Shown: positions 2,225 to 19,151 of the stretch, piece by piece | Numbering within the stretch: the first letter of the stretch is position 1 | How the letters are laid out: each line of letters begins with the position of its first letter | Virus record (IMG/VR): IMGVR_UViG_2923355181_000001 | DNA: 42,980 nt | Origin: a virus | Taxonomy: Duplodnaviria; Heunggongvirae; Uroviricota; Caudoviricetes | Direction: 5' to 3' (one strand) | Notes under the pieces: generated by a model | What the model saw: the letters and a program-made list of their open reading frames with translations, nothing else | Told to the model about the DNA's origin: nothing | Databases searched by the model: none | Translations under genes and position numbers: made by a program

Positions 2225-2793
2225 TAGCGTATCCTCAGTGACCGTTCGCCGCGTTCCAGATGTGCGCCTGGTACCGGGTTTAATAACTCGGCTGGTGGTG
2301 TTTCTCCACGCGCCAGTATTTCGGCGGCAACCGCCTCCGCAGATTCAATCACTTCTTTAATGGCTCGCTTGTTTGGTGTAATAACCGTTTCTACATCAAC
2401 AAGTGACACGCCCTCATACTCATCCGGGATCTTATCTTTGCTATCGATAATTACCCGGATAGCCCCCTGTGCATCAGTAAATGTGTTTTTTGCGGTTTTC
2501 AGTTTATCCAGGCCAGCAGCTTGCAGGCAGGTGAGCATATGCTTTCGAATTGCTTTTTCCTTGCCTTCAAAGGACGTCTTACGGGTTGCCAGGCGAGACA
2601 TTTCTTCAGCGCAGGTATTGGCATTGCCCTGTAAATTACGGCAGATGACCATCATGGCGTCCAGTTTGTCTCCCAGTTCTCCTTCCATGCCTTCAAGCGT
2701 GTCGGCGATCATCTCTGGCGTCAGTTCATCGGCGGTTTCTAACAGGTCAATCAGACTGGCATATTCTTTTGCAATAGCGATAGCAGTGCTCAT
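2224..2793 (-). CDS. hypothetical early-left protein (possibly Gp157-like)
   Basis: 189-aa ORF; ATGA overlap with stop of the annealase gene; no motif I can assign confidently. Confidence 0.55.
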   Translation of the reverse strand: MSTAIAIAKEYASLIDLLETADELTPEMIADTLEGMEGELGDKLDAMMVICRNLQGNANTCAEEMSRLATRKTSFEGKEKAIRKHMLTCLQAAGLDKLKTAKNTFTDAQGAIRVIIDSKDKIPDEYEGVSLVDVETVITPNKRAIKEVIESAEAVAAEILARGETPPAELLNPVPGAHLERGERSLRIR

Positions 2794-5006
2794 GCTGTTT
2801 GCTCCTGTGCAGCGGTAAGGGCGGCGAGGCGTTCAGTTTTAATGTCGGTGATACGGCGCAGACGTGATCCCAGATACGATGAATATTCTTTATCGCCTTT
2901 GGTTTCCGCTGCTTTCCTGTGTACATCCACTTCGCGGGCGATGAGGCCAAATACCTTGTTTACTTCGTTGGCGGTTACCGCGGCGGCCAGCGTATTGGCA
3001 ACGTTGATAAGCTTCTCATCCAGTTCCTTACGCAGACGGGTAGCATCTTCCGCATTCTCGCTGGCATTCTTGATATCAAACTCAGCTTTATTCCTCTGGC
3101 GGTATTCCGGATTGTCGTACAGGCCCATGAAAATATCGGCGCTGAATCCGAGAGGGGATAGCGCTTTCTTAACAGCATCCGTCCAGGATTTCTTCGGTGC
3201 TTCGCCGTCGCTTGTTGGTCCGTATTTAGTGTCGTAGATATAAGGTGTGCATCCGTAAGCCTCGGACTCACCGCGTACCCCATTCAATATGTACCAGACT
3301 CTCACTTTCATGGTGTGGTGCATTTCACATAGGTACCCGCCAACACCGTCTTGAATCAGATCCCATTCTATTTTTTCACCAACCTGTTTTTTGCGAACTA
3401 TTGGTGCGCCTTTATCAAAGCGCTCCTCCAGCACCTCTACCCCCCAGCCAATACCAAATGGCCCAAATTCGCGAGTCGCTTTCATCGCTATATAAGTGCC
3501 GTTGATGGATGTGCCGCCGCCATTCTGAGAGAAAGCACTGGTGAAGCGCTCATCGGTTTTGAATACGTTCTTCCACAATGCCAGGTTATCCGTGTCATCT
3601 GAGTCCTTTAACTCCGTTTCGATAGCTGAGATTGCATTCTGCCGCTTGTGCTCTTCGGCATGGATCCGCTCAACCAGCGCGTCAACGTTCTGCACCAGAT
3701 CCTTTACCTGCTCGCTAAGTTGTTCTTGTGGAGGAGTCTCTTCTGCCAGGGTAATAGCTGCAGGTTCCCTCTGTGATACGGCGTTATTTTCAGGTACGTC
3801 ATACACATGGCGAGGCGTGACAAACTGCTCACGCAACTGCTGCAAACTACGTTCTCCAGCATTTGCAGCTTCGCTTTTTTCGCCCTGATTTGAGGGTGTT
3901 TCTGACATCATCCCATCAATTGAGAATCGTCCGCCGCCGTGGTTGGTGACTTTTACATCATCCTTGGGTGCTGCTTCCTTTGGCTTCTCTTCAACAGCAT
4001 TTGCATCACGCTGCCCGTTAGCTTGCAGCCAGTTGTCGATGTGACTGCGCAGGGATTGTGGGAAGTGGTACGTGTCTTTTGCGGGGGCGCTCTGAATAAC
4101 ACCGAATACTGATGCGCGGTCATAGGCAAGGATCTGATCCGTTGTGCGCAAGGCCATTGACCAGCGTTTAAAATCTTCCCTGTCCTGACTGATTATTTCG
4201 TCTGCCGCTTTCAGGATGCTGGGGGTGATTTTTTCCGGGGCAACAGGTAACAGGGCGCAGGCAATTTCACGATCCAGAGTGGCGTGAGTCTGTTTGTAAG
4301 GACGTGCGGATGCTGTTTCTGGTTTTACCTCCGGCAGCATTTCATCTCGTTTACCGGGATTCTCTACCCATTTTTTTATAAATTTGGAGATAGTCCAACT
4401 GGTCGGGTTTTGTTCCTGGGTATCGCAACTTGCCAAAATTGCATGTACCAGATTATTCAATCCAGCAATATGCATGTACTCGATGGGCTTACACGCCACC
4501 ATGGCATCAAGAACGATGCGGTTAAACGCGTCAACCTCATCCTCACTGTCAGTATCACTGTTATCGAGCATCTCCAGGTATTCACGCGTCTGCACAAGCA
4601 ATTCACTGTCGACTTCGTTGGCGTCGTGGCTGAACAGCAGAACGGCGGCGAATCGTTCACGAGCCGGCAGTTTCATCAGGTCGCTAACCTGTGAGATATC
4701 TGCTGAACTGCAATCTGAATCAACAGGAGTGTTAACTACCCATTTTTCGCCATCAAAACTGTGTTCTGTGGCAAACGTCTCATCAAACTCACCGACGCCT
4801 GGGCGCGGTTGGCCCGGGGCATCTTCCCAGATTTTAGGTTTGAAATAGTTGTCGCCGTGGTCAGGGTAGGCTTCCCACAATTTGCCGATGATGATGTTCT
4901 CGGCAACTTTTTTGTTAGGGGCGGCGATGGCGATGGCCAGCGCCGGGATCGCGCCGTTTTTGAGCGCGCCTTTTTTCGCTTCTAACAAGCCGTTAAAAAT
5001 GGTCAT
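2790..5006 (-). CDS. large recombination protein with Rad52-like single-strand annealing domain plus about 470-aa N-terminal region of unknown function
   Basis: 738-aa uninterrupted ORF; residues about 470-620 (...SQNGGGTSINGTYIAMKATREFGPFGIGWGVEV...KKSWTDAVKKALSPLGFSADIF) resemble the Rad52 N-terminal core; start has ATGAGGAAAGACCAATG context. Confidence 0.65.
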   Translation of the reverse strand: MTIFNGLLEAKKGALKNGAIPALAIAIAAPNKKVAENIIIGKLWEAYPDHGDNYFKPKIWEDAPGQPRPGVGEFDETFATEHSFDGEKWVVNTPVDSDCSSADISQVSDLMKLPARERFAAVLLFSHDANEVDSELLVQTREYLEMLDNSDTDSEDEVDAFNRIVLDAMVACKPIEYMHIAGLNNLVHAILASCDTQEQNPTSWTISKFIKKWVENPGKRDEMLPEVKPETASARPYKQTHATLDREIACALLPVAPEKITPSILKAADEIISQDREDFKRWSMALRTTDQILAYDRASVFGVIQSAPAKDTYHFPQSLRSHIDNWLQANGQRDANAVEEKPKEAAPKDDVKVTNHGGGRFSIDGMMSETPSNQGEKSEAANAGERSLQQLREQFVTPRHVYDVPENNAVSQREPAAITLAEETPPQEQLSEQVKDLVQNVDALVERIHAEEHKRQNAISAIETELKDSDDTDNLALWKNVFKTDERFTSAFSQNGGGTSINGTYIAMKATREFGPFGIGWGVEVLEERFDKGAPIVRKKQVGEKIEWDLIQDGVGGYLCEMHHTMKVRVWYILNGVRGESEAYGCTPYIYDTKYGPTSDGEAPKKSWTDAVKKALSPLGFSADIFMGLYDNPEYRQRNKAEFDIKNASENAEDATRLRKELDEKLINVANTLAAAVTANEVNKVFGLIAREVDVHRKAAETKGDKEYSSYLGSRLRRITDIKTERLAALTAAQEQTA

Positions 5007-11963: not shown

Positions 11964-12752
11964 ATGACAGTCCAAATATCTGCGGAATCCCTTTCTCCGC
12001 TACATCATAACCAACTTCCCGTCATCACTACTGAATTGCTTGCCAGTTTGTATGGCACGGAAGTAAATGGTATCCAGCAAAACTTCAAGCGCAACATCGC
12101 CAGATTTGTCGTAGGAAAGCATTTTTTTAAGCTGGAAGGTAATGAATTACGCGACTTCAAAAACAGACTGACAGATAGTCAGTCAGTTGCTAAACATACC
12201 CGATCCCTCATTCTCTGGACAGAACGCGGCGCAGCTCGCCATGCCAAAATGCTGGAAACAGAACAGGCCTGGGAAGTTTTCGAAAAGCTGGAAGATTGTT
12301 ATTTTAGCCAGCGTCCAGAGAGGCGGAGTACAACTACCGATGACCGTACTCCCTTGCGTGATGCCGTTAATATACTGGTCGGCAAGAAAGGCATGATGTA
12401 TCCCGATGCCTACACCATGATTCATCAACGCTTCGCCGTCTCTCACATAGAACAACTGTCACAGACGCAAATGTTAGAGGCGATTGAATACATCCACTGC
12501 CTGCTACTCGATGAAAATCACCCAACCATTCCAGATTTTTCTTTTATCACCACTATCAAAAATGGAAAAGTGACCGGGATGCGCCATGTTGCCAAAGGCG
12601 AACATCTGATGACCTTTGACGCTTTCAAAGAGATCGCTGAGCGGGCAGGGTATCTGGTGATCCACAGCGACAATCTGCGAAGTATGACACTGGATAAATT
12701 GATGGTAATGGGGAAAAAGTCGGCTATATCCGTTGCTAATTCAGCATTTTGA
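11964..12752 (+). CDS. phage antirepressor-like protein (ORF6N/KilA-type)
   Basis: Track ORF starts TTG 11916; ATG 11964 preceded by GAGG; N-terminal region resembles antirepressor N-domains. Confidence 0.55.
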   Translation: MTVQISAESLSPLHHNQLPVITTELLASLYGTEVNGIQQNFKRNIARFVVGKHFFKLEGNELRDFKNRLTDSQSVAKHTRSLILWTERGAARHAKMLETEQAWEVFEKLEDCYFSQRPERRSTTTDDRTPLRDAVNILVGKKGMMYPDAYTMIHQRFAVSHIEQLSQTQMLEAIEYIHCLLLDENHPTIPDFSFITTIKNGKVTGMRHVAKGEHLMTFDAFKEIAERAGYLVIHSDNLRSMTLDKLMVMGKKSAISVANSAF

Positions 12753-12776
12753 CAGGTTGTTTGGGGCGGAAATACT

Positions 12777-12848
12777 CTATTTGCGCTTAAAAAGGTATTT
12801 GACCACGACCAGCACGAGACCGAATACCTCTGTCAAAGTACCGCCCAT
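12777..12848 (-). pseudogene. orphan 3'-terminal fragment (23 codons + stop) of the membrane-protein gene at 16200-16805
   Basis: Minus strand encodes MGGTLTEVFGLVLVVVKYLFKRK*, one conservative change from the C-terminus of the 201-aa protein; about 90% nt identity over about 72 bp to 16200-16271. Confidence 0.75.
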
Positions 12849-12926
12849 ATAAAACAGTTACATATGCACTTGATGACTAAGCTGGCACCAGGTTAACACC
12901 TGGCGCCAGCTTGAAGGAGACTTCAG

Positions 12927-13850
12927 TTATTGGTTTCTGAGGAAAGCGATTCTTGAAAGGGTCATTTGCGTCTGGCAGTCGACCATTTTCTTGACTTCAG
13001 CATCTGTTCCCTGCATTGAAACTTTACCGCACATAGCATCCTTAGTTTTGATCCACTGACGCTGAGAAGGCAGCAAATCTTTTTTCTTCGCCGGGGTTAA
13101 CTTGCTCCAGACGGTACTCAAATCAGAGTCGGCATTCGCAAATGCCATTCGGGACTGATCAAGGTTGTCAGCTTTTTGCGGCTGAAGTTGTGCCTGTCTC
13201 TCTATTTGCTTCTCCGCCTCATACTTAGCCTGTTCTTGCGCCCTGAGTTGCACCTGTTGTTCCGCTTCAATTTGACTCTGTTGGGCATCCTTAGCCTGCT
13301 GGATTTTCTGCTGCTCAACGATCGGGGTGATAATGGAAAGCGATGTCAGTAAAGCGGCGCCCACTGATATCGGATTATCAGTAGAGGTTTTTACAAAAAC
13401 GTTTTTCTGATCGTCGGTCGCCTGCACGGTGTAGGTGATACGTTTTGAAAAGGCGTTTGCGTTGTTCTCCAAAAACAGGCTTTCCATTTGCTTATCGAGA
13501 TTACGATTAAAATTCTTTCTGTAAGCATCTGAAAGCTGGACGTACTCGTTCGCAGATAGAGTCATCGTCACGGTCCCTTCACAAGTTTTCATTGTGCTGC
13601 CCGTGTCACTTGATGTTGTGGAGATCTCAGAGATGGCTAGTTTGATCTTGTCCAGTGTGCTTCGTTTGGTCTGATTAGTGACATCAGGGTATTTATCGAC
13701 CTGTTCAGAGAGTCCTTCATAAGCAGATTTTTTTAATAAATCCATGAGAGCTGACTGGGTTATTTCCGAAGAACAACCGATCTCATCTTTTTTGTTATCA
13801 CAGCCTGTAAGGGCAATGGCGAGTAAGAGTACTGAGTATTTTAATCTCAT
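12927..13850 (-). CDS. lipoprotein with possible C-terminal DUF1311 (LprI-like) domain
   Basis: Signal peptide and lipobox MRLKYSVLLLAIALTGC; coiled-coil Q/E-rich middle; C-terminal QRQWIKTKDAMCG...VDCQ...TLSRIAFL pattern. Confidence 0.55.
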   Translation of the reverse strand: MRLKYSVLLLAIALTGCDNKKDEIGCSSEITQSALMDLLKKSAYEGLSEQVDKYPDVTNQTKRSTLDKIKLAISEISTTSSDTGSTMKTCEGTVTMTLSANEYVQLSDAYRKNFNRNLDKQMESLFLENNANAFSKRITYTVQATDDQKNVFVKTSTDNPISVGAALLTSLSIITPIVEQQKIQQAKDAQQSQIEAEQQVQLRAQEQAKYEAEKQIERQAQLQPQKADNLDQSRMAFANADSDLSTVWSKLTPAKKKDLLPSQRQWIKTKDAMCGKVSMQGTDAEVKKMVDCQTQMTLSRIAFLRNQ

Positions 13851-15038
13851 GAATTCCCTTTAGAGTAAGGATTGGTTTTTAAGACGCGGTCTGTAATCAG
13901 TCCCGAGAGCTACAGTAAACAACGCTGAGCACTGAACGCATCACAGGTAAGGTAAAAGGTGATATCGGCAAAGGCTGTGAAACCTTTAATTCAACAGATG
14001 GGAACGGTATGCGCAGGATCCTGTAACGACGCTCCCAAAACCGGAAACCTGTAAGGCATGTTTTCGCTGCTGAACTTAATATACGAACCTGCACTATCAT
14101 GAACATATTTTATATCGTTATACCCCGAGTGATTGTGCCCGGCAATGGATAGTGTCCTGGAGGAACTATTTCTACTGTAAAAGGTAGATATTTAATTTCA
14201 GTTTTGAATTATTCCCTGCTGTTAATAACAATGGCTGTATATGGCACCGAGTAGGCATTTTTTCGCTTACTGAAGGGCAGCTGTGAGCGAGGAACAGACT
14301 TTCCCTACTTCGTTGAGAGTACACCTAGTACAATCAAGGCTAAATGATAAAAATATACAAAATATCATATTTATGATATATATAATGGCATTAATCTTAT
14401 TCTTGGATTACGTTGAAAGGGTAATATTATATTTGTGTAACATAGTTTAGATAACAATGCCGTTATGGGGGGGGGAAAGACATTTCAACATATTAGCTTT
14501 GTATCTAACGCTCATGTAGATCTCGATTTTGAACTTAAAGAACAATTATTTTTTAGAGAGCAAGGTATTTTTGGGGAACAAAAACATAAAGTAATGGAGA
14601 GAGGAGAATGTATCAAAAAATCATCGATTTAATTTAGATTGTCCGTATAGTTGGGGGTAAGTCGAATCGCTGGGCTACATGGAATATTGTGTCAAGTAAA
14701 AATATATTTCAATCTTGCAATAACCGATTGTTGAAAATAATGTCAAATCTTAATGGTGAATGGGGAGAATATAATAAACATGAGTCGATATTATGCAAAT
14801 GGATTTAAATATTTTATACCCGAAGACATAGGGTTTCGAGAGTTCGATGAGACTACTTTGAATGCTTTCGAATTTGCTGGCTAAAACATATAGGTTATAT
14901 CTTACATCTGTTTGTAATGGAGCGTAGATGCGACAAGCTACACCATAATAATCATATTATGATATATTGTTAAGTTGTTATGGCATTAAATAAAATTATG
15001 TCATTTTGTTAACCAAGCAAGAATCAAAGGACTTTTAG

Positions 15039-15737
15039 ATGGGTACGGCATTAATTTCAAGCTTTATTAGTGGTGCAATAGCTATAATCTCTATTGCTAT
15101 ATCTACTTATAATCAGAATAGAATAAACAAGCTCAATGAATCACTGGATGTAAGGAGAAAACATCAGTACTATATTGAACCGTTAATTCGCTCAGCTTCA
15201 GACTTACAAAGCCGTATTTATAATATATTAGAATTGGGGTTCATTGAAGAGTTTTATCATAATGGGAATAAGCGCCAACAAGATTATGTTATCAACAATA
15301 CTGTTTTTCTTTTTTCCCAGTTTTTTGCATGGACAGAAGCTGCCCGCATAGACATTCAATACCTTAGCCTAGAAAAAAATAAAAAAATGAGGGAGTTTAT
15401 TAGATTACAGAACAATATTAACTCATTAATCCAAACAGACGTCTTTGGTCAGTATTTTATGTTTTTCATAGGAGAGCAGAGAGCTATTGCAGAAAAGATG
15501 CTGATATCAACAGATACTGGATTTGATTGCATAGGTTACGGCAGTTTCACAAAGGAAAATTGCTTTATCAATGAGCCATTTTTTTTAGATTTAAACAATG
15601 AAGTGATAAATATGACAAGAGATATCGGAATTTATAAAGAAAGGCTAATCAGAATACAGCACGCGTTAATCGATTTAATTAATTTTCTTGATCCTGGCAT
15701 GATTCGATTTGACGGAAAAAAATATGGAAAAATATAA
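15039..15737 (+). CDS. hypothetical membrane-anchored protein in strongly AT-rich cargo
   Basis: 232-aa ORF, AAAGGA RBS, N-terminal hydrophobic helix ALISSFISGAIAIISIAISTY; codon usage and GC far below flanking phage genes. Confidence 0.6.
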   Translation: MGTALISSFISGAIAIISIAISTYNQNRINKLNESLDVRRKHQYYIEPLIRSASDLQSRIYNILELGFIEEFYHNGNKRQQDYVINNTVFLFSQFFAWTEAARIDIQYLSLEKNKKMREFIRLQNNINSLIQTDVFGQYFMFFIGEQRAIAEKMLISTDTGFDCIGYGSFTKENCFINEPFFLDLNNEVINMTRDIGIYKERLIRIQHALIDLINFLDPGMIRFDGKKYGKI

Positions 15738-15921
15738 CCCAGATGATTCGTATCAAGGTAAGTTGCTATATGTATCAATTTAATTATGGTTGGGTGAAAT
15801 TTATGTTAATAGTAGCGGAGGGTTAGTTAAAATATGCTCTCAGTGATTTTTGGATAGTTCTTTTATTTATCATTGAAAGTAAATATGTATAGCTTCAAGA
15901 TTTACAAGTGAATCTGTTTAT

Positions 15922-15955
15922 TGACAGTCCGCTTATGGCACAGAGCGGACTGTCA
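15922..15955 (+). terminator. 12-bp perfect inverted repeat, candidate terminator or protein site
   Basis: TGACAGTCCGCT-N10-AGCGGACTGTCA followed by A/T-rich sequence. Confidence 0.3.
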
Positions 15956-16199
15956 TATTAAATTTGGCTCCACGCCATAGATGTGTCAGCTCATATCTTA
16001 TCTAATACACACAATAACTTTCTCATTCTTGGAGAATTATTTTTTTAAGGGTAGGTGTTGACGTTAGAGCAAAAGAATGGTGATTTTTTTGATGTGTATT
16101 ACGTTGGAACTGATGGGAATAACTATCTGTTTTCAACGCACTGCTAATTTATCAAGGCCCTTTGATCAGGGCCTTCGAAAGACTGTTGGACCGAGAGAG

Positions 16200-16805
16200 T
16201 TACTTGCGTTTAAAAAGGTATTTTGTCACGACCAGCACGAGGCCGAATACCTCTGTCAAAGTACCGCCCATGTACAACTGTAGTGTTAAATCCTCAAATT
16301 CCAGCTTACCTGCGCCGTCGGCAATAAATACACCATTCATTATCAGAAGTTGGAAAGCAAGGATAATCAGGAACCATTTCCCGTATCGTTTTTTTAGAGC
16401 GATTTCTGCTTCAAAATCTTTGTTGTTGAGTTGTTTGCGCTCATGCTCGGTATCAAGTGAATTCACCTGTTTCACAGATGTGAACTCGGTCAAGATTTTA
16501 CTCTCAGTACGGGTGACTTGTTGAGAGGGTGTAGCAGTTGGAATTCTTTTGCTAGACGCAGCTACAGCCATTTTGCGAGCTTCGGCAGCTCTTTTTCTGG
16601 CTATTCCGCGAATACGGACAGCCGTTTTTTTGGGGGCGTGCGAAACCTTTGGCTGAGGTGAAGCTTCGTCAGGAGACTGAACCGGAGTTTCATCGTCCTC
16701 CGGCTCAACCTCTTCTGCTAACTGACGGTGTAGGTTGAGGGAATCCTTCAGTCTGCGTGCTACTTCCTGTTTGAAACGGCTGTTAAAATCGTCATCCGAT
16801 GGCAT
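16200..16805 (-). CDS. hypothetical membrane protein with charged N-terminal region and C-terminal hydrophobic hairpin
   Basis: 201-aa ORF immediately downstream of the ImmA-like gene on the same strand; C-terminal WFLIILAFQLLIMNGVFIA...VFGLVLVVTKYLF hydrophobic. Confidence 0.6.
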   Translation of the reverse strand: MPSDDDFNSRFKQEVARRLKDSLNLHRQLAEEVEPEDDETPVQSPDEASPQPKVSHAPKKTAVRIRGIARKRAAEARKMAVAASSKRIPTATPSQQVTRTESKILTEFTSVKQVNSLDTEHERKQLNNKDFEAEIALKKRYGKWFLIILAFQLLIMNGVFIADGAGKLEFEDLTLQLYMGGTLTEVFGLVLVVTKYLFKRK

Positions 16806-16814
16806 TTTAAAGCG

Positions 16815-17303
16815 TTACCCCAACCTCAAGTTCTTTAAACGATAAGTCATCGCATCGTCAGATACGCCAAAATAATGCGCCATTATATAACTTGGTTGAC
16901 CGTCAGCGTGCAGTTTTCTGACCTCATCTACCGGCATCAGAAGTTCTGCTGCGAACTTGTTTGCAAAAATTTCATCAGGATGCGTTCCGGCGCTTGCGGT
17001 TTCGCCACGTAAATCAACGTACTCATATTCATCGCTATGCGATGCTTGCCGGGCGATGTAATGCCCCAACTCATGCCCACATGAAAAACGTTGACGAACT
17101 TTGTTGTCATCACTGTTTAGAAAGATCGCTGGATCTTGATCTTTTTGTTTAATCAGTGCGCCAGAAACTTTCCCAGGAAGATCGGTAATAAAAACATCTA
17201 ATCCCATGTCGTGAGCAATTTTCGCTGGATCAACAGGGAAACCACGCCCGCACCAGAACGTGTCCAGCACTCGCCGGGCGTGCTCTCTTGGGTTGGTAGC
17301 CAT
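16815..17303 (-). CDS. ImmA/IrrE-family (COG2856-like) zinc metallopeptidase
   Basis: 162-aa ORF with HEXXH motif (SCGHELGHYIA); strong RBS GGAGGAG. Confidence 0.65.
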   Translation of the reverse strand: MATNPREHARRVLDTFWCGRGFPVDPAKIAHDMGLDVFITDLPGKVSGALIKQKDQDPAIFLNSDDNKVRQRFSCGHELGHYIARQASHSDEYEYVDLRGETASAGTHPDEIFANKFAAELLMPVDEVRKLHADGQPSYIMAHYFGVSDDAMTYRLKNLRLG

Positions 17304-17679
17304 AGCTCCTCCAGTTACTGCATTACGATTATTGGTTGAAATATAGACAGCATGTTCCGTACCACATTCCTGTAAAAGTGCAAATTCTGCACTTCTGGTA
17401 CGATATTAACTGTTAGTAGTAAAGTCTTCCAGATAAATCACTTTAAAATCTTGTGAATTGCTTGCTTTTTACGCTGTATTGTGGATGGTTCAATGTTTCC
17501 AGTAAAAACATACATGATAATCATGAGTTTAGTGTTTTTTTAGGCGTCTATATGTTTCTGGAAAATACAGGTCTAACCTGATCTTATCGTTGAGATTTTT
17601 TGTACTCAGTATGCGTGAACGATTCGACCAGGTGACTGTGTACGTGAAGAAGACCGCCCTTAATATTTTAAATGTGCAA

Positions 17680-17700
17680 CCCCTCAGAAGAGGGGCTACT
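17680..17700 (-). terminator. hairpin terminator after the 77-aa gene
   Basis: CCCCTC-agaa-GAGGGG directly 3' of the gene stop, followed on the minus strand by a U-containing tract. Confidence 0.4.
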
Positions 17701-17701
17701 C

Positions 17702-17935
17702 TCACTTCTGCAGTATCTCGCCAATACCTGCCAGATTCTCGTCCATCTTGTCACCGTTTTCGATAAGGATGGAGTTGAGCCGATTCAGTTGCATAGCAAT
17801 TTCAAGTTTGATTAAGGTATCCACCGATACACCAGTTTCTTTTGCTAACTTAGTAAGAGCCGCAGCTCGATTGGCTAAATTAAAATCATCGAACTCATAA
17901 CGACTTCTGCACGGCTGGTTGCCTAACGTACCCAT
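17702..17935 (-). CDS. hypothetical small protein (possible DNA-binding)
   Basis: 77-aa ORF with RBS ATGAGGAA; own terminator. Confidence 0.45.
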   Translation of the reverse strand: MGTLGNQPCRSRYEFDDFNLANRAAALTKLAKETGVSVDTLIKLEIAMQLNRLNSILIENGDKMDENLAGIGEILQK

Positions 17936-18178
17936 AGTGATTCCTCATGATATAAAGACCCAACAATATAAATTACCAGGCACATCATAAGATAGGGTTC
18001 CAGCCCATATTTTCAAATATTTGCAAGTATCACCGTTCAGTCTAAAAAGTTGGATGATGATTTAACGAGCCATAACAAAACCCTGCCTCGGAGGTTTTTT
18101 CTTTTTTATAGAACTCAGCGGCGTGAAAACGAATAATAAATTGTGCAAATAGTGCAGTTTTTATTATTCGAGGTAATT

Positions 18179-18820
18179 ATGAAAACCTTCTATGAGGACT
18201 GGCCTGAAACTTTCGTTAGCCGGTTAGATATGTTACGGGCGTTGGATGATCGCGGTTCGACCCGGAGGCTCTATCTTGAACGGACCGGGGCAATATTTGA
18301 CGCTCTGGCAGAAGAGATACGTACAGTCGTTGCCGGGCATCCTGAAATCGACGTGAGTGAACTTGATATCGGGCCGCTGTATCGCTATTACAAACGTGGA
18401 GAAAAGGGGAATCCGCTGGCTGACTTACTTATTGAGTTGGCTCCACCAACTTGTGAACGGGTTCGTATATCTCCTGAAGTGTACATAATCCCGTATCTGT
18501 TTTTTGCACTGTTGATAGCGCAAGGCGCTGACAACGATGCCCGCGATTTTTTCAATATGATGATGCGACCGTTAATCATCGCCTACCGTTTCAAACAACT
18601 GGCGCGATACCTGGGAACAAAGGGCGGAGGACGACCACAGCACAGATTAAAAAGCGAAGCCATTGAACTGGCTGATCGTTTTTTTACTGAAAACCCGACA
18701 GCGCCATTATCGCGTGGCGTGCAATACATATCCGGTATTTTTGTGGCGAAATACTCTGACCCACCTGCAGCGTCGACGATTAGAAAATGGTTAATTCCAA
18801 TTTACAGGAGTGATAAATAA
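18179..18820 (+). CDS. hypothetical protein
   Basis: Track ORF begins GTG 18143; ATG 18179 has GAGGT RBS; 213 aa, no recognisable motif. Confidence 0.5.
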   Translation: MKTFYEDWPETFVSRLDMLRALDDRGSTRRLYLERTGAIFDALAEEIRTVVAGHPEIDVSELDIGPLYRYYKRGEKGNPLADLLIELAPPTCERVRISPEVYIIPYLFFALLIAQGADNDARDFFNMMMRPLIIAYRFKQLARYLGTKGGGRPQHRLKSEAIELADRFFTENPTAPLSRGVQYISGIFVAKYSDPPAASTIRKWLIPIYRSDK

Positions 18821-18931
18821 TGACCATAAACGGTTTAATCCCCTATAAAACCGTTTAATAAAATTCACGACGTGAATATAATTGTTCATTATTCCCTCAT
18901 TGTATTTGGCGTTATGACAAATGCCATAAAA

Positions 18932-18951
18932 TACTGTATAAATATACAGGT
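18932..18951 (+). promoter_or_regulatory. LexA (SOS) box
   Basis: ATACTGTATAAATATACAGG: CTGT-N8-ACAG with A/T-rich spacer, near-perfect match to TACTGTATATATATACAGTA; about 20 nt upstream of ORF start 18972. Confidence 0.7.
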
Positions 18952-18971
18952 TGTGGCATTGGGGGGAAGAC

Positions 18972-19151
18972 ATGAATATTCAAGAATCTATAGGCGAACT
19001 ACCGGAAACATGCCGGGCTGTTATCAAGCGTAAGGACGGACACATCGTTGGTGTGCGTGTTCTGACCGATGATGAGCGGATTGCCAGCCTGATGGCGTTT
19101 CTCGAGTTGGCAGAAATAGCTGGATATACTATTACACCCCCTGACGCGTAA
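18972..19151 (+). CDS. small LexA-controlled protein, candidate antirepressor
   Basis: 59 aa from ATG 18972 with G-rich RBS (track ORF from TTG 18951); LexA box overlaps its promoter region. Confidence 0.5.
   Translation: MNIQESIGELPETCRAVIKRKDGHIVGVRVLTDDERIASLMAFLELAEIAGYTITPPDA

Follow-up and report, generated by a model that had tools for sequence, protein, structure and literature searches.

How an intact phage gene comes to be separated from a second copy of its own 3' end by 3.4 kb of other DNA is the question raised by a lambdoid prophage of Escherichia coli (IMG/VR virus record IMGVR_UViG_2923355181_000001), the 42,980 nucleotides of which are referred to here as the window. The gene encodes a 201-amino-acid (aa) protein, and the original prediction, made from the sequence alone, regarded the DNA between the two copies as one cassette, inserted or swapped by recombination at the 3' end of that gene. 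Comparison with related prophages bore out the recombination, the swapping and their location, but not the single cassette: the 3.4 kb consists of at least two modules with separate histories, an LprI block (12881-14079) and a P2-type block (14280-15993). These occupy a slot between an ORF6N-domain gene and a gene pair encoding an ImmA/IrrE peptidase and the 201-aa protein, and this slot is very probably a cargo hotspot in the nin-type region of a family of lambdoid prophages.

The window corresponds to a prophage of the sequence type 131 (ST131; JJ1886-type) lineage that adjoins glyW-cysT-leuZ, with tRNA genes Gly-GCC, Cys-GCA and Leu-TAA at 152-453 and the integrase gene next to them. Hundreds of E. 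coli genomes, among them JJ1886 and further ST131 strains, carry a chromosomal prophage that matches the island at 100% identity. At least 80% of the window between 12500 and 19000 was found in 403 of 5,426 complete E. coli genomes, and the recurrence of the same arrangement in so many of them excludes an assembly artefact. According to the RefSeq annotation, the gene order is replicative helicase, small genes, ORF6N-domain protein, LprI-family protein (reverse), 232-aa hypothetical protein, 201-aa hypothetical protein and ImmA/IrrE peptidase (both reverse), 77-aa protein, 213-aa protein, DUF1367, DUF1364, antiterminator Q and holins. Lying between the replication genes and Q, the island is in the classic moron-bearing region of lambdoid phages, as had been predicted.

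The duplicated gene tail and the slot it borders

An exact, ungapped alignment of 12777-12848 with 16200-16271 gave 65 identities in 72 positions (90.3%), so that the predicted similarity of about 90% did not collapse on closer comparison. A repeat search extended the match to 81 nt at 89% identity (12778-12858 with 16201-16281, at a spacing of 3,423 bp) and found no other comparable repeat in the region; in 20 locally shuffled windows, the best seeded 72-nt direct match reached 34-43 of 72. The orphan copy (12777-12858, minus strand) comprises the last 23 codons and stop of the 201-aa gene with about 9 nt of further similarity. It reads, again as predicted, MGGTLTEVFGLVLVVVKYLFKRK*, which differs from the tail of the 201-aa protein by a single residue (V for T), and a stop codon stands three codons upstream of its M. 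Alignments placed 24 bp (12753-12776) between the stop codon of the orphan and that of the antirepressor-like ORF6N gene (11964-12752, plus strand; Pfam ORF6N, 1e-21), which is annotated as such in RefSeq and which the breakpoints described below mark as the left anchor of the slot. This 24-bp spacer is kept in the window and in six related loci (L002, L003, L011, L013, L014 and L042). The right anchor is the 201-aa gene itself (16200-16805, minus strand), the last 81 nt of which (16201-16281) are the full-gene copy of the repeat. Read along the minus strand, the window thus presents ImmA, the 201-aa gene, a spacer, a hairpin, the 232-aa module, a linker, LprI, 68 bp, the orphan, 24 bp and ORF6N. 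The content between the copies is as originally described, namely a DUF1311-like lipoprotein gene, about 1.2 kb without a conserved open reading frame (ORF), and the gene of a 232-aa membrane-anchored protein. The bounds first given to the island, 12753-18950, proved too wide: only 12777-16281 is bounded by the repeats, and the relatives keep the ImmA-201aa pair and the 213-aa gene as part of a conserved backbone.

Between the same two anchors, at least six configurations were observed, the content varying as expected of a cassette site. In the window, the LprI module and the AT-rich 232-aa module lie between the orphan and the 201-aa gene. Loci L003 and L013 (E. coli MEI3O-23; IMG/VR) carry a 134-aa gene and a GIY-YIG/T5orf172 nuclease gene, then LprI and the orphan. 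In L004 (E. coli GF131), the 201-aa gene is followed by the 272-bp spacer, the hairpin, the PADLOC candidate pair PDC-M25A/B (E 3e-157 and 5e-96), a zinc-ribbon pseudogene and an ORF6N gene with a different 3' end, with no orphan. L008 (E. whittamii) is a composite with L003/L013-type and L004-type cargo in series, PDC-M25A/B included. L011 (IMG/VR) holds a 4-kb cargo with PD-T4-3 (E 2e-137; named from the PADLOC model alone), a DUF6650 protein and transmembrane (TM) proteins, then a 126-bp 3' fragment of LprI and the orphan, and L014 and L042 (IMG/VR; E. coli YZMc3-1) hold a 5-kb AT-rich set encoding a SMEK-domain protein, an S-adenosylmethionine methyltransferase and proteins of 450 and 235 aa. 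Recognized defense genes among the occupants are thus PD-T4-3 (L011), which is reportedly an experimentally validated GIY-YIG defense gene from Vassallo et al. 2022, and PDC-M25A/B (L004 and L008). The zinc-ribbon pseudogene fragment of L004 (3238-3417 of that locus) stands where other relatives carry the orphan tail, and is the leftover of an earlier occupant.

The breakpoints between these configurations recur at window positions 15927/8, 16178, 14251, 12693, 12789 and 12858. The first falls in a hairpin (15922-15955) with a 13-bp stem and an RNA folding free energy of about -24 kcal/mol, terminator-like on the plus strand, which is common to the window, the P2-type copies (P2-EC58, L006 and L017), L004 and L008, and which forms the edge of the cargo in L004, L008, L011 and L014. 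From it a 272-bp spacer (15928-16199), containing a second hairpin at 16155-16174, extends to the end of the 201-aa gene; this spacer is kept in relatives with other cargo (L004, L011 and L014) and in L008 is located after the second copy. The linker upstream of the LprI-like gene (14080-14279) is shared with L003, L008 and L013 as far as 14251, where the cargo diverges. At the far end, the ORF6N gene of L004 and L008 diverges from the window from 12693 onward, which gives it its alternative 3' end.

The repeat itself records a similar history. The joint formed by LprI, 68 bp and the orphan is identical in the window, L003, L008, L011 and L013, and so arose once. The second copy occurs as three alleles, those of the window, L008 and L013. 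In L008, the LprI flank is joined to gene-type alleles with a 1-nt deletion, and the copy is followed by 355 bp of spacer and hairpin sequence, precisely what lies beyond the intact gene of L004; the left part of the L013 copy is of the L008 type and its right part of the window type. Such chimeric alleles, seen in L002, L008 and L013, indicate repeated homologous crossovers inside the 81 nt. In L014 and L042, all that is left of the orphan-type end is its last 13 nt, together with the 24-bp spacer, evidence of a second, independent joint inside the tail of the resident gene. Judged from these alignments, the gene tail is both a recombination scar and a live recombination substrate.

The cargo and its possible functions

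The P2-type block is an AT-rich module on the plus strand with a guanine-plus-cytosine (GC) fraction of 0.32, made up of a leader (14280-15038) and one coding sequence (CDS; 15039-15737). Windowed values fell to 0.30-0.36 over approximately 14100-16050, compared with 0.48 for the whole window, in agreement with the AT-rich character first ascribed to it. The module aligns with the Z-region insert of P2-EC58 (ORF1, 'putative lysogenic protein', AJ512683) at 86.6% identity over 1,731 columns. In P2-like prophages and phages, this cassette lies between the genes for tail sheath (FI) and tail-fiber assembly (G), within the Z/fun locus of the P2 tail genes, a recognized accessory and defense hotspot (PMC13586616); the window copy lies outside that site, in a lambdoid prophage with ORF6N on one side and the ImmA-201aa genes on the other. 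Its ends are 91% conserved, compared with 71-85% for the interior of the leader. Small ORFs in 14280-15038 were rejected as genes, given the stop codons and indels in P2-type copies and substitutions that fall evenly across codon phases, and the 760-bp leader is therefore genuinely non-coding. A Rfam scan of 12600-19000 at E ≤ 1 returned two chance-level eukaryotic matches only, with no known RNA in the leader. By contrast with the even pattern there, the substitutions in the 232-aa ORF are distributed 16/6/20 over the three codon positions, which indicates purifying selection. The inverted repeat annotated around the module in P2-EC58 was sought in the window and found to be absent as such, the best local score being 15 compared with 29 in P2-EC58, where the match is 22 nt and weak.

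The 232-aa protein has a single N-terminal TM segment followed by a cytoplasmic domain confidently predicted to be helical (predicted local distance difference test score 87). Its family, with members of about 240 aa and 290 homologs at E ≤ 0.001 in the Proteobacteria and beyond, matches no Pfam or NCBIfam model; invariant polar residues are clustered at D55, Q57, S58, R59, N62, R79, E100, R103 and E146-R148, and fold searches returned generic helical bundles only. All 48 of the diverse family members that were compared with PADLOC matched its RTasTM model PDLC03799 (best E 1e-10), 36 of the 48 matched a second RTasTM model (PDLC03013), and one matched Drt1b. With the window protein, the match (E 1.8e-5, 22 bits) aligned residues 71-204 collinearly with positions 86-212 of the 229-position model. 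On these profile matches, the family is considered a remote relative of the membrane partner in nitrilase-type reverse transcriptase (RT) defense systems. No RT gene adjoins it in the nine contexts examined (the window island, the P2-type copies and six distant contexts), and hence it is not a defense-associated RT (DRT) system but a stand-alone relative of one DRT component. The original prediction assigned no protein of the island to a described defense system; remote links to defense families do exist for two of them, from the 232-aa protein to RTasTM and from ImmA to capP. Distant members of the 232-aa family adjoin SIR2-HerA and toxin-antitoxin (PIN/MqsA-type) modules.

Given its homology and location, the 232-aa protein is regarded as the best anti-phage candidate of the window cargo. 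A membrane-acting anti-phage effector or exclusion protein is the most likely of its possible functions, a tentative assignment that falls short of an even chance. More speculative, and somewhat less probable again, is a wider proposal in which the protein would be a self-sufficient, single-gene anti-phage system acting by abortive infection or exclusion, a membrane effector from the DRT-partner lineage that no longer depends on an RT and moves between P2-like and lambdoid phages with the hairpin-bearing ends of its cassette serving as portable recombination adapters, and in which the neighboring ImmA and two-TM pair may be a protease-gated membrane effector module of an undescribed kind.

The LprI block (12881-14079, minus strand; CDS 12927-13850) encodes a lipoprotein of 307 aa with an N-terminal alpha/beta domain, a 60-residue helix and a C-terminal, three-helix LprI/DUF1311 domain. 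Its membership of this family follows from both a PF07007 score of 30.8 bits (cut-off, 22) and a matching fold; in a structural search the top match was a DUF1311 protein, with a solved 'immunity protein' also among the matches, and a PDB sequence search gave no meaningful match. The lipoprotein signal peptide predicted from its sequence, MRLKYSVLLLAIALTGC-D, has the lipobox LTGC and Asp at position +2. The product is a candidate inner-membrane-type lipoprotein, and a candidate binder or inhibitor of peptidoglycan hydrolases. The module shares 88% DNA identity with a fixed, non-prophage chromosomal locus of Citrobacter freundii (L035-L038), flanked there by genes for an iron-type ATP-binding cassette transporter and by MFS/amn genes, which suggests a recent common origin of the phage module and the Citrobacter host gene. 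It is also approximately 86% identical to DNA in the same nin-type slot of Enterobacter lambdoid prophages, and its protein cluster has entries in 1,006 blocks of the collection searched. The first 32 nt of the gene (13819-13850) match exactly a spacer in native type I-E CRISPR arrays of E. coli (for example in strain 222, beside cas2e), a match given by about 120 complete genomes; this protospacer is preceded by an ATG at 13816-13818, and ATG is a protospacer-adjacent motif accepted by type I-E CRISPR. In one further genome (L005, FXCREC048), the LprI-like gene is directly followed by an IS1 copy, beyond which the prophage continues into P2-like baseplate and tail genes; this is a rearrangement or deletion mediated by the insertion sequence (IS), and it has removed the remainder of the island.

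The right anchor is a unit of its own. The metallopeptidase gene (16815-17303, minus strand) encodes 162 aa with a Peptidase_M78 domain (PF06114, 7.7e-18) and the motif HELGH; its best PADLOC match is capP (2e-25), and a NCBIfam scan gave nothing but a sub-threshold ImmA match. It lies before a 201-aa-type gene in every context examined. The pair occupies three different positions in other prophages, including a place beside the integrase gene at the prophage end in K. oxytoca and Rac-like E. coli prophages and one after the antiterminator gene in a Serratia prophage, and the ImmA/IrrE and C-terminal-TM proteins (L023-L032, L027) are thus encoded by what behaves as a mobile two-gene unit. The N-terminal part of the 201-aa protein is variable and charged; the C-terminal 90 residues or so are alone conserved, at 70-80% identity across Enterobacterales, and comprise one strong TM segment (142-165) and a second hydrophobic tail, the latter encoded by the repeat. 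Because phages that otherwise differ share this 3' coding region in strongly conserved form, homologous recombination has a natural substrate in it. The protein has no Pfam or NCBIfam domain and no detectable helix-turn-helix (HTH), a PDB sequence search gave no meaningful match, and no homolog was found in the phage collection; a scan of genome contigs with patterns from close relatives, which limit its reach, returned one locus. In several ST131 isolates (L044, which is AR_451, at approximately 16200-16300; H147-H151) the gene has been cut short at its 3' end by an IS1 insertion and is consequently dispensable in the lysogen. A second exact 32-nt match to a type I-E CRISPR spacer (strain JX21CE8) lies inside the ImmA/IrrE gene, at 17064-17095.

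An anti-phage role for this cargo has one serious competitor, namely that the island is ordinary lysogenic-conversion or host-fitness cargo, concerned with envelope protection or virulence, and that the defense genes of sister prophages merely share a permissive site. The LprI-like gene, having a stable chromosomal ortholog in Citrobacter, may serve envelope physiology and not defense, and its best structural match is to a DUF1311 protein, with the 'immunity protein' match beside it; one distant member of the 232-aa family (L047) sits in a sugar-transport/oxidoreductase operon; and the filled form is so nearly fixed in ST131 that it may hitch-hike with the clone. These points, together with the fact that the role of the window's own cargo is argued from location, remote homology and neighbors, weigh against defense. 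On the other hand, the same slot carries PD-T4-3 and PDC-M25A/B, the 232-aa cassette occupies the P2 Z/fun hotspot in P2-like phages, and its protein is homologous to DRT membrane partners and has relatives beside SIR2-HerA and toxin-antitoxin genes. The host-fitness explanation is accordingly viewed as a real, if minority, possibility.

Origin of the island

The clearest view of the process is provided by strain GPEC172, the sole empty site among 456 E. coli genomes that carry the anchors. Its 201-aa gene lies 24 bp from the ORF6N gene, and the single copy of the repeat switches from orphan alleles, nearest ORF6N, to gene alleles, with the crossover within a 29-nt identical core; across 9 kb, the 8 diagnostic positions of the repeat are the only differences between GPEC172 and the window. 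The simplest reading is that it would have undergone a recent, precise deletion of 3,423 bp by recombination between the copies, in which case the cargo is dispensable for maintenance of the prophage and the repeat is still recombinogenic. An empty configuration had been predicted and does exist, but as a secondary deletion between the repeats rather than as a surviving ancestor. Despite this secondary nature of GPEC172, the 13-nt stub in L014 and L042 points to an ancestral state with the 201-aa gene directly against ORF6N.

The account that best explains these observations, and in which we place considerable confidence as an evolutionary anatomy of the hotspot, would begin with that ancestral state. 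A homologous crossover within the conserved ImmA-201aa pair, or upstream of it, would have let in new DNA, whose second joint would have been illegitimate, landing inside the 3' end of the resident gene. The incoming DNA would have brought a complete 201-aa gene, and the tail of the resident one would have remained as the orphan. Entry of this kind would have occurred at least twice, with the joint 81 nt before the stop codon in the LprI-linked lineage of the window and 13 nt before it in L014 and L042. Modules were later exchanged by homologous recombination at short shared sequences, as the breakpoints and chimeras show: the 81-nt gene tail, the 272-bp spacer that ends in a strong hairpin, and the linker upstream of LprI. 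In one strain, a crossover between the still-active copies would have deleted exactly the 3,423-bp cargo.

Three considerations count against this account. The sample of variant loci is small, at about ten independent configurations; the order of ancestral events, with an illegitimate joint and not a Campbell-type insertion at its start, was reconstructed from present-day structures alone; and no phage-encoded recombinase was recognized among the 10 ORFs scanned from the early and nin regions. The enzyme of exchange could be the host RecA.

The same repeat would arise by a Campbell-type insertion, in which a circle carrying the cargo and a diverged 72-81-nt gene tail entered an empty site by a single homologous crossover, with GPEC172 as the surviving ancestor. 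A single crossover yields exactly such a flanking direct repeat, the chimeric alleles of a deletion product would equally be expected in an ancestor, and the L014/L042 stub attests that the 201-aa gene once abutted ORF6N. However, the 9-kb flanks of GPEC172 are identical to those of the filled ST131 prophage outside the repeat, and it is one genome in 456, both of which fit recent loss; moreover, a circle-borne homology of 72 nt predicts neither the joint between LprI and orphan that is the same in five configurations nor the L008 second copy that runs 355 bp into the spacer. This explanation is consequently thought improbable. A site-specific or transposon-like insertion, with the gene tail as an attachment or target site duplicated in the process, is the least plausible of all: integrating elements often regenerate the 3' end of a target gene and leave a partial duplicate, and inverted repeats are annotated on either side of the P2-type cassette in the record of P2-EC58, but there is no integrase or transposase in or beside the cargo of any variant, the breakpoints vary and crossovers fall at different positions within the repeat, and the inverted repeat of the P2 type is not present as such in the window.

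Farther right, comparison with the relatives revealed a second, smaller variable segment at 17566-18078. It includes the 77-aa gene (17702-17935, minus strand; phrog_5550, no Pfam match), in place of which L003, L004, L008 and L013 have an unrelated gene of about 79 aa on the opposite strand. The 213-aa gene beyond it (18179-18820, plus strand; phrog_5215) belongs to the conserved backbone and not to the variable cargo, and a PDB sequence search with its product gave no meaningful match. In several ST131 genomes, among them AVS0947 (L043), the ISL3-like element ISEc53 was found at approximately 18830-18950, between the 213-aa gene and the next small gene, and its transposase gene is directly adjoined by one annotated as ClbS/DfsB-family (colibactin self-protection-like). 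In the early region of the window, a 738-aa ORF (2790-5006, minus strand) has no Pfam match; the gene at the corresponding place in K. oxytoca prophages, after Sipho_Gp157, is annotated YdfE_N/YdfE_C.

Relation to known systems

The prophage is present in about 400 of the 5,426 complete E. coli genomes, essentially those of pandemic ST131, and its cargo may shape the phage host range of the lineage, with a bearing on phage therapy. As a locus, it offers an unusually clean, base-resolved view of how defense cargo is exchanged, through one old illegitimate joint and then repeated homologous crossovers at an 81-nt tail and a hairpin, and it places one cassette in two unrelated families of temperate phages, the P2-like and the lambdoid. 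Three candidates are nominated by it: the solo RTasTM-like 232-aa protein, the DUF1311 lipoprotein, and the pair of ImmA and membrane protein.

The 232-aa protein resembles Drt1b and the RTasTM partners of DRT1/UG5-type systems in its length of about 230 aa, in its N-terminal TM segment followed by a helical domain, and in a collinear profile match, but it lacks an adjacent RT and, at 22 bits, is only remotely similar; what Drt1b itself does is unsettled (PMC13275509). ImmA of the window shares the Peptidase_M78 domain and the HEXXH motif, here HELGH, with the peptidases of the ImmA/IrrE-ImmR and CapP-CapH pairs, but its partner is a small protein with a C-terminal membrane region instead of an HTH repressor, and the two move as a unit. 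The module around the 232-aa gene is like the Z/fun cassette of P2-like coliphages (P2-EC58 ORF1, AJ512683) over 1.7 kb at 86.6%, in AT-rich leader, 232-aa ORF and downstream hairpin, and differs in that the window copy lies in a lambdoid nin-type region, linked to LprI and flanked by the duplicated gene tail. No cargo variant contained the linked recombinase of an att-type integrating cassette, and the crossover point, fixed in such cassettes, varies here.

In its mode of assembly, the locus shows no essential difference from the mosaic model of lambdoid phages (Hendrix/Juhala/Clark), in which illegitimate joints are followed by homologous exchange at short conserved sequences: one novel joint was inherited by many descendants and reshuffled via flanking homology. 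A search of the literature, which was not exhaustive, found no paper on this particular site. Defense hotspots of temperate phages and their satellites are known from the old/tin locus of P2 and the psu-int locus of P4 (Rousset et al. 2022, PMC9122126; Vassallo et al. 2022, PMC9519451), and the swapping of defense genes between phages via flanking homology has been discussed (PMC13586616, PMC9122126). The present slot resembles these in its conserved flanks, its highly variable content, its mixture of known defense genes and unknowns, and its exchange between related elements; it differs in phage family and site, and in that its junctions are resolved, from the 81-nt tail, 272-bp spacer and hairpin to the chimeras and the deletion. 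The kind of hotspot is thus already known. What is specific here is the combination of base-resolved junctions having chimeric alleles with a deletion caught in one strain, a cassette common to P2-like and lambdoid phages, and an uncharacterized, solo RTasTM-like protein that is near-fixed in ST131.

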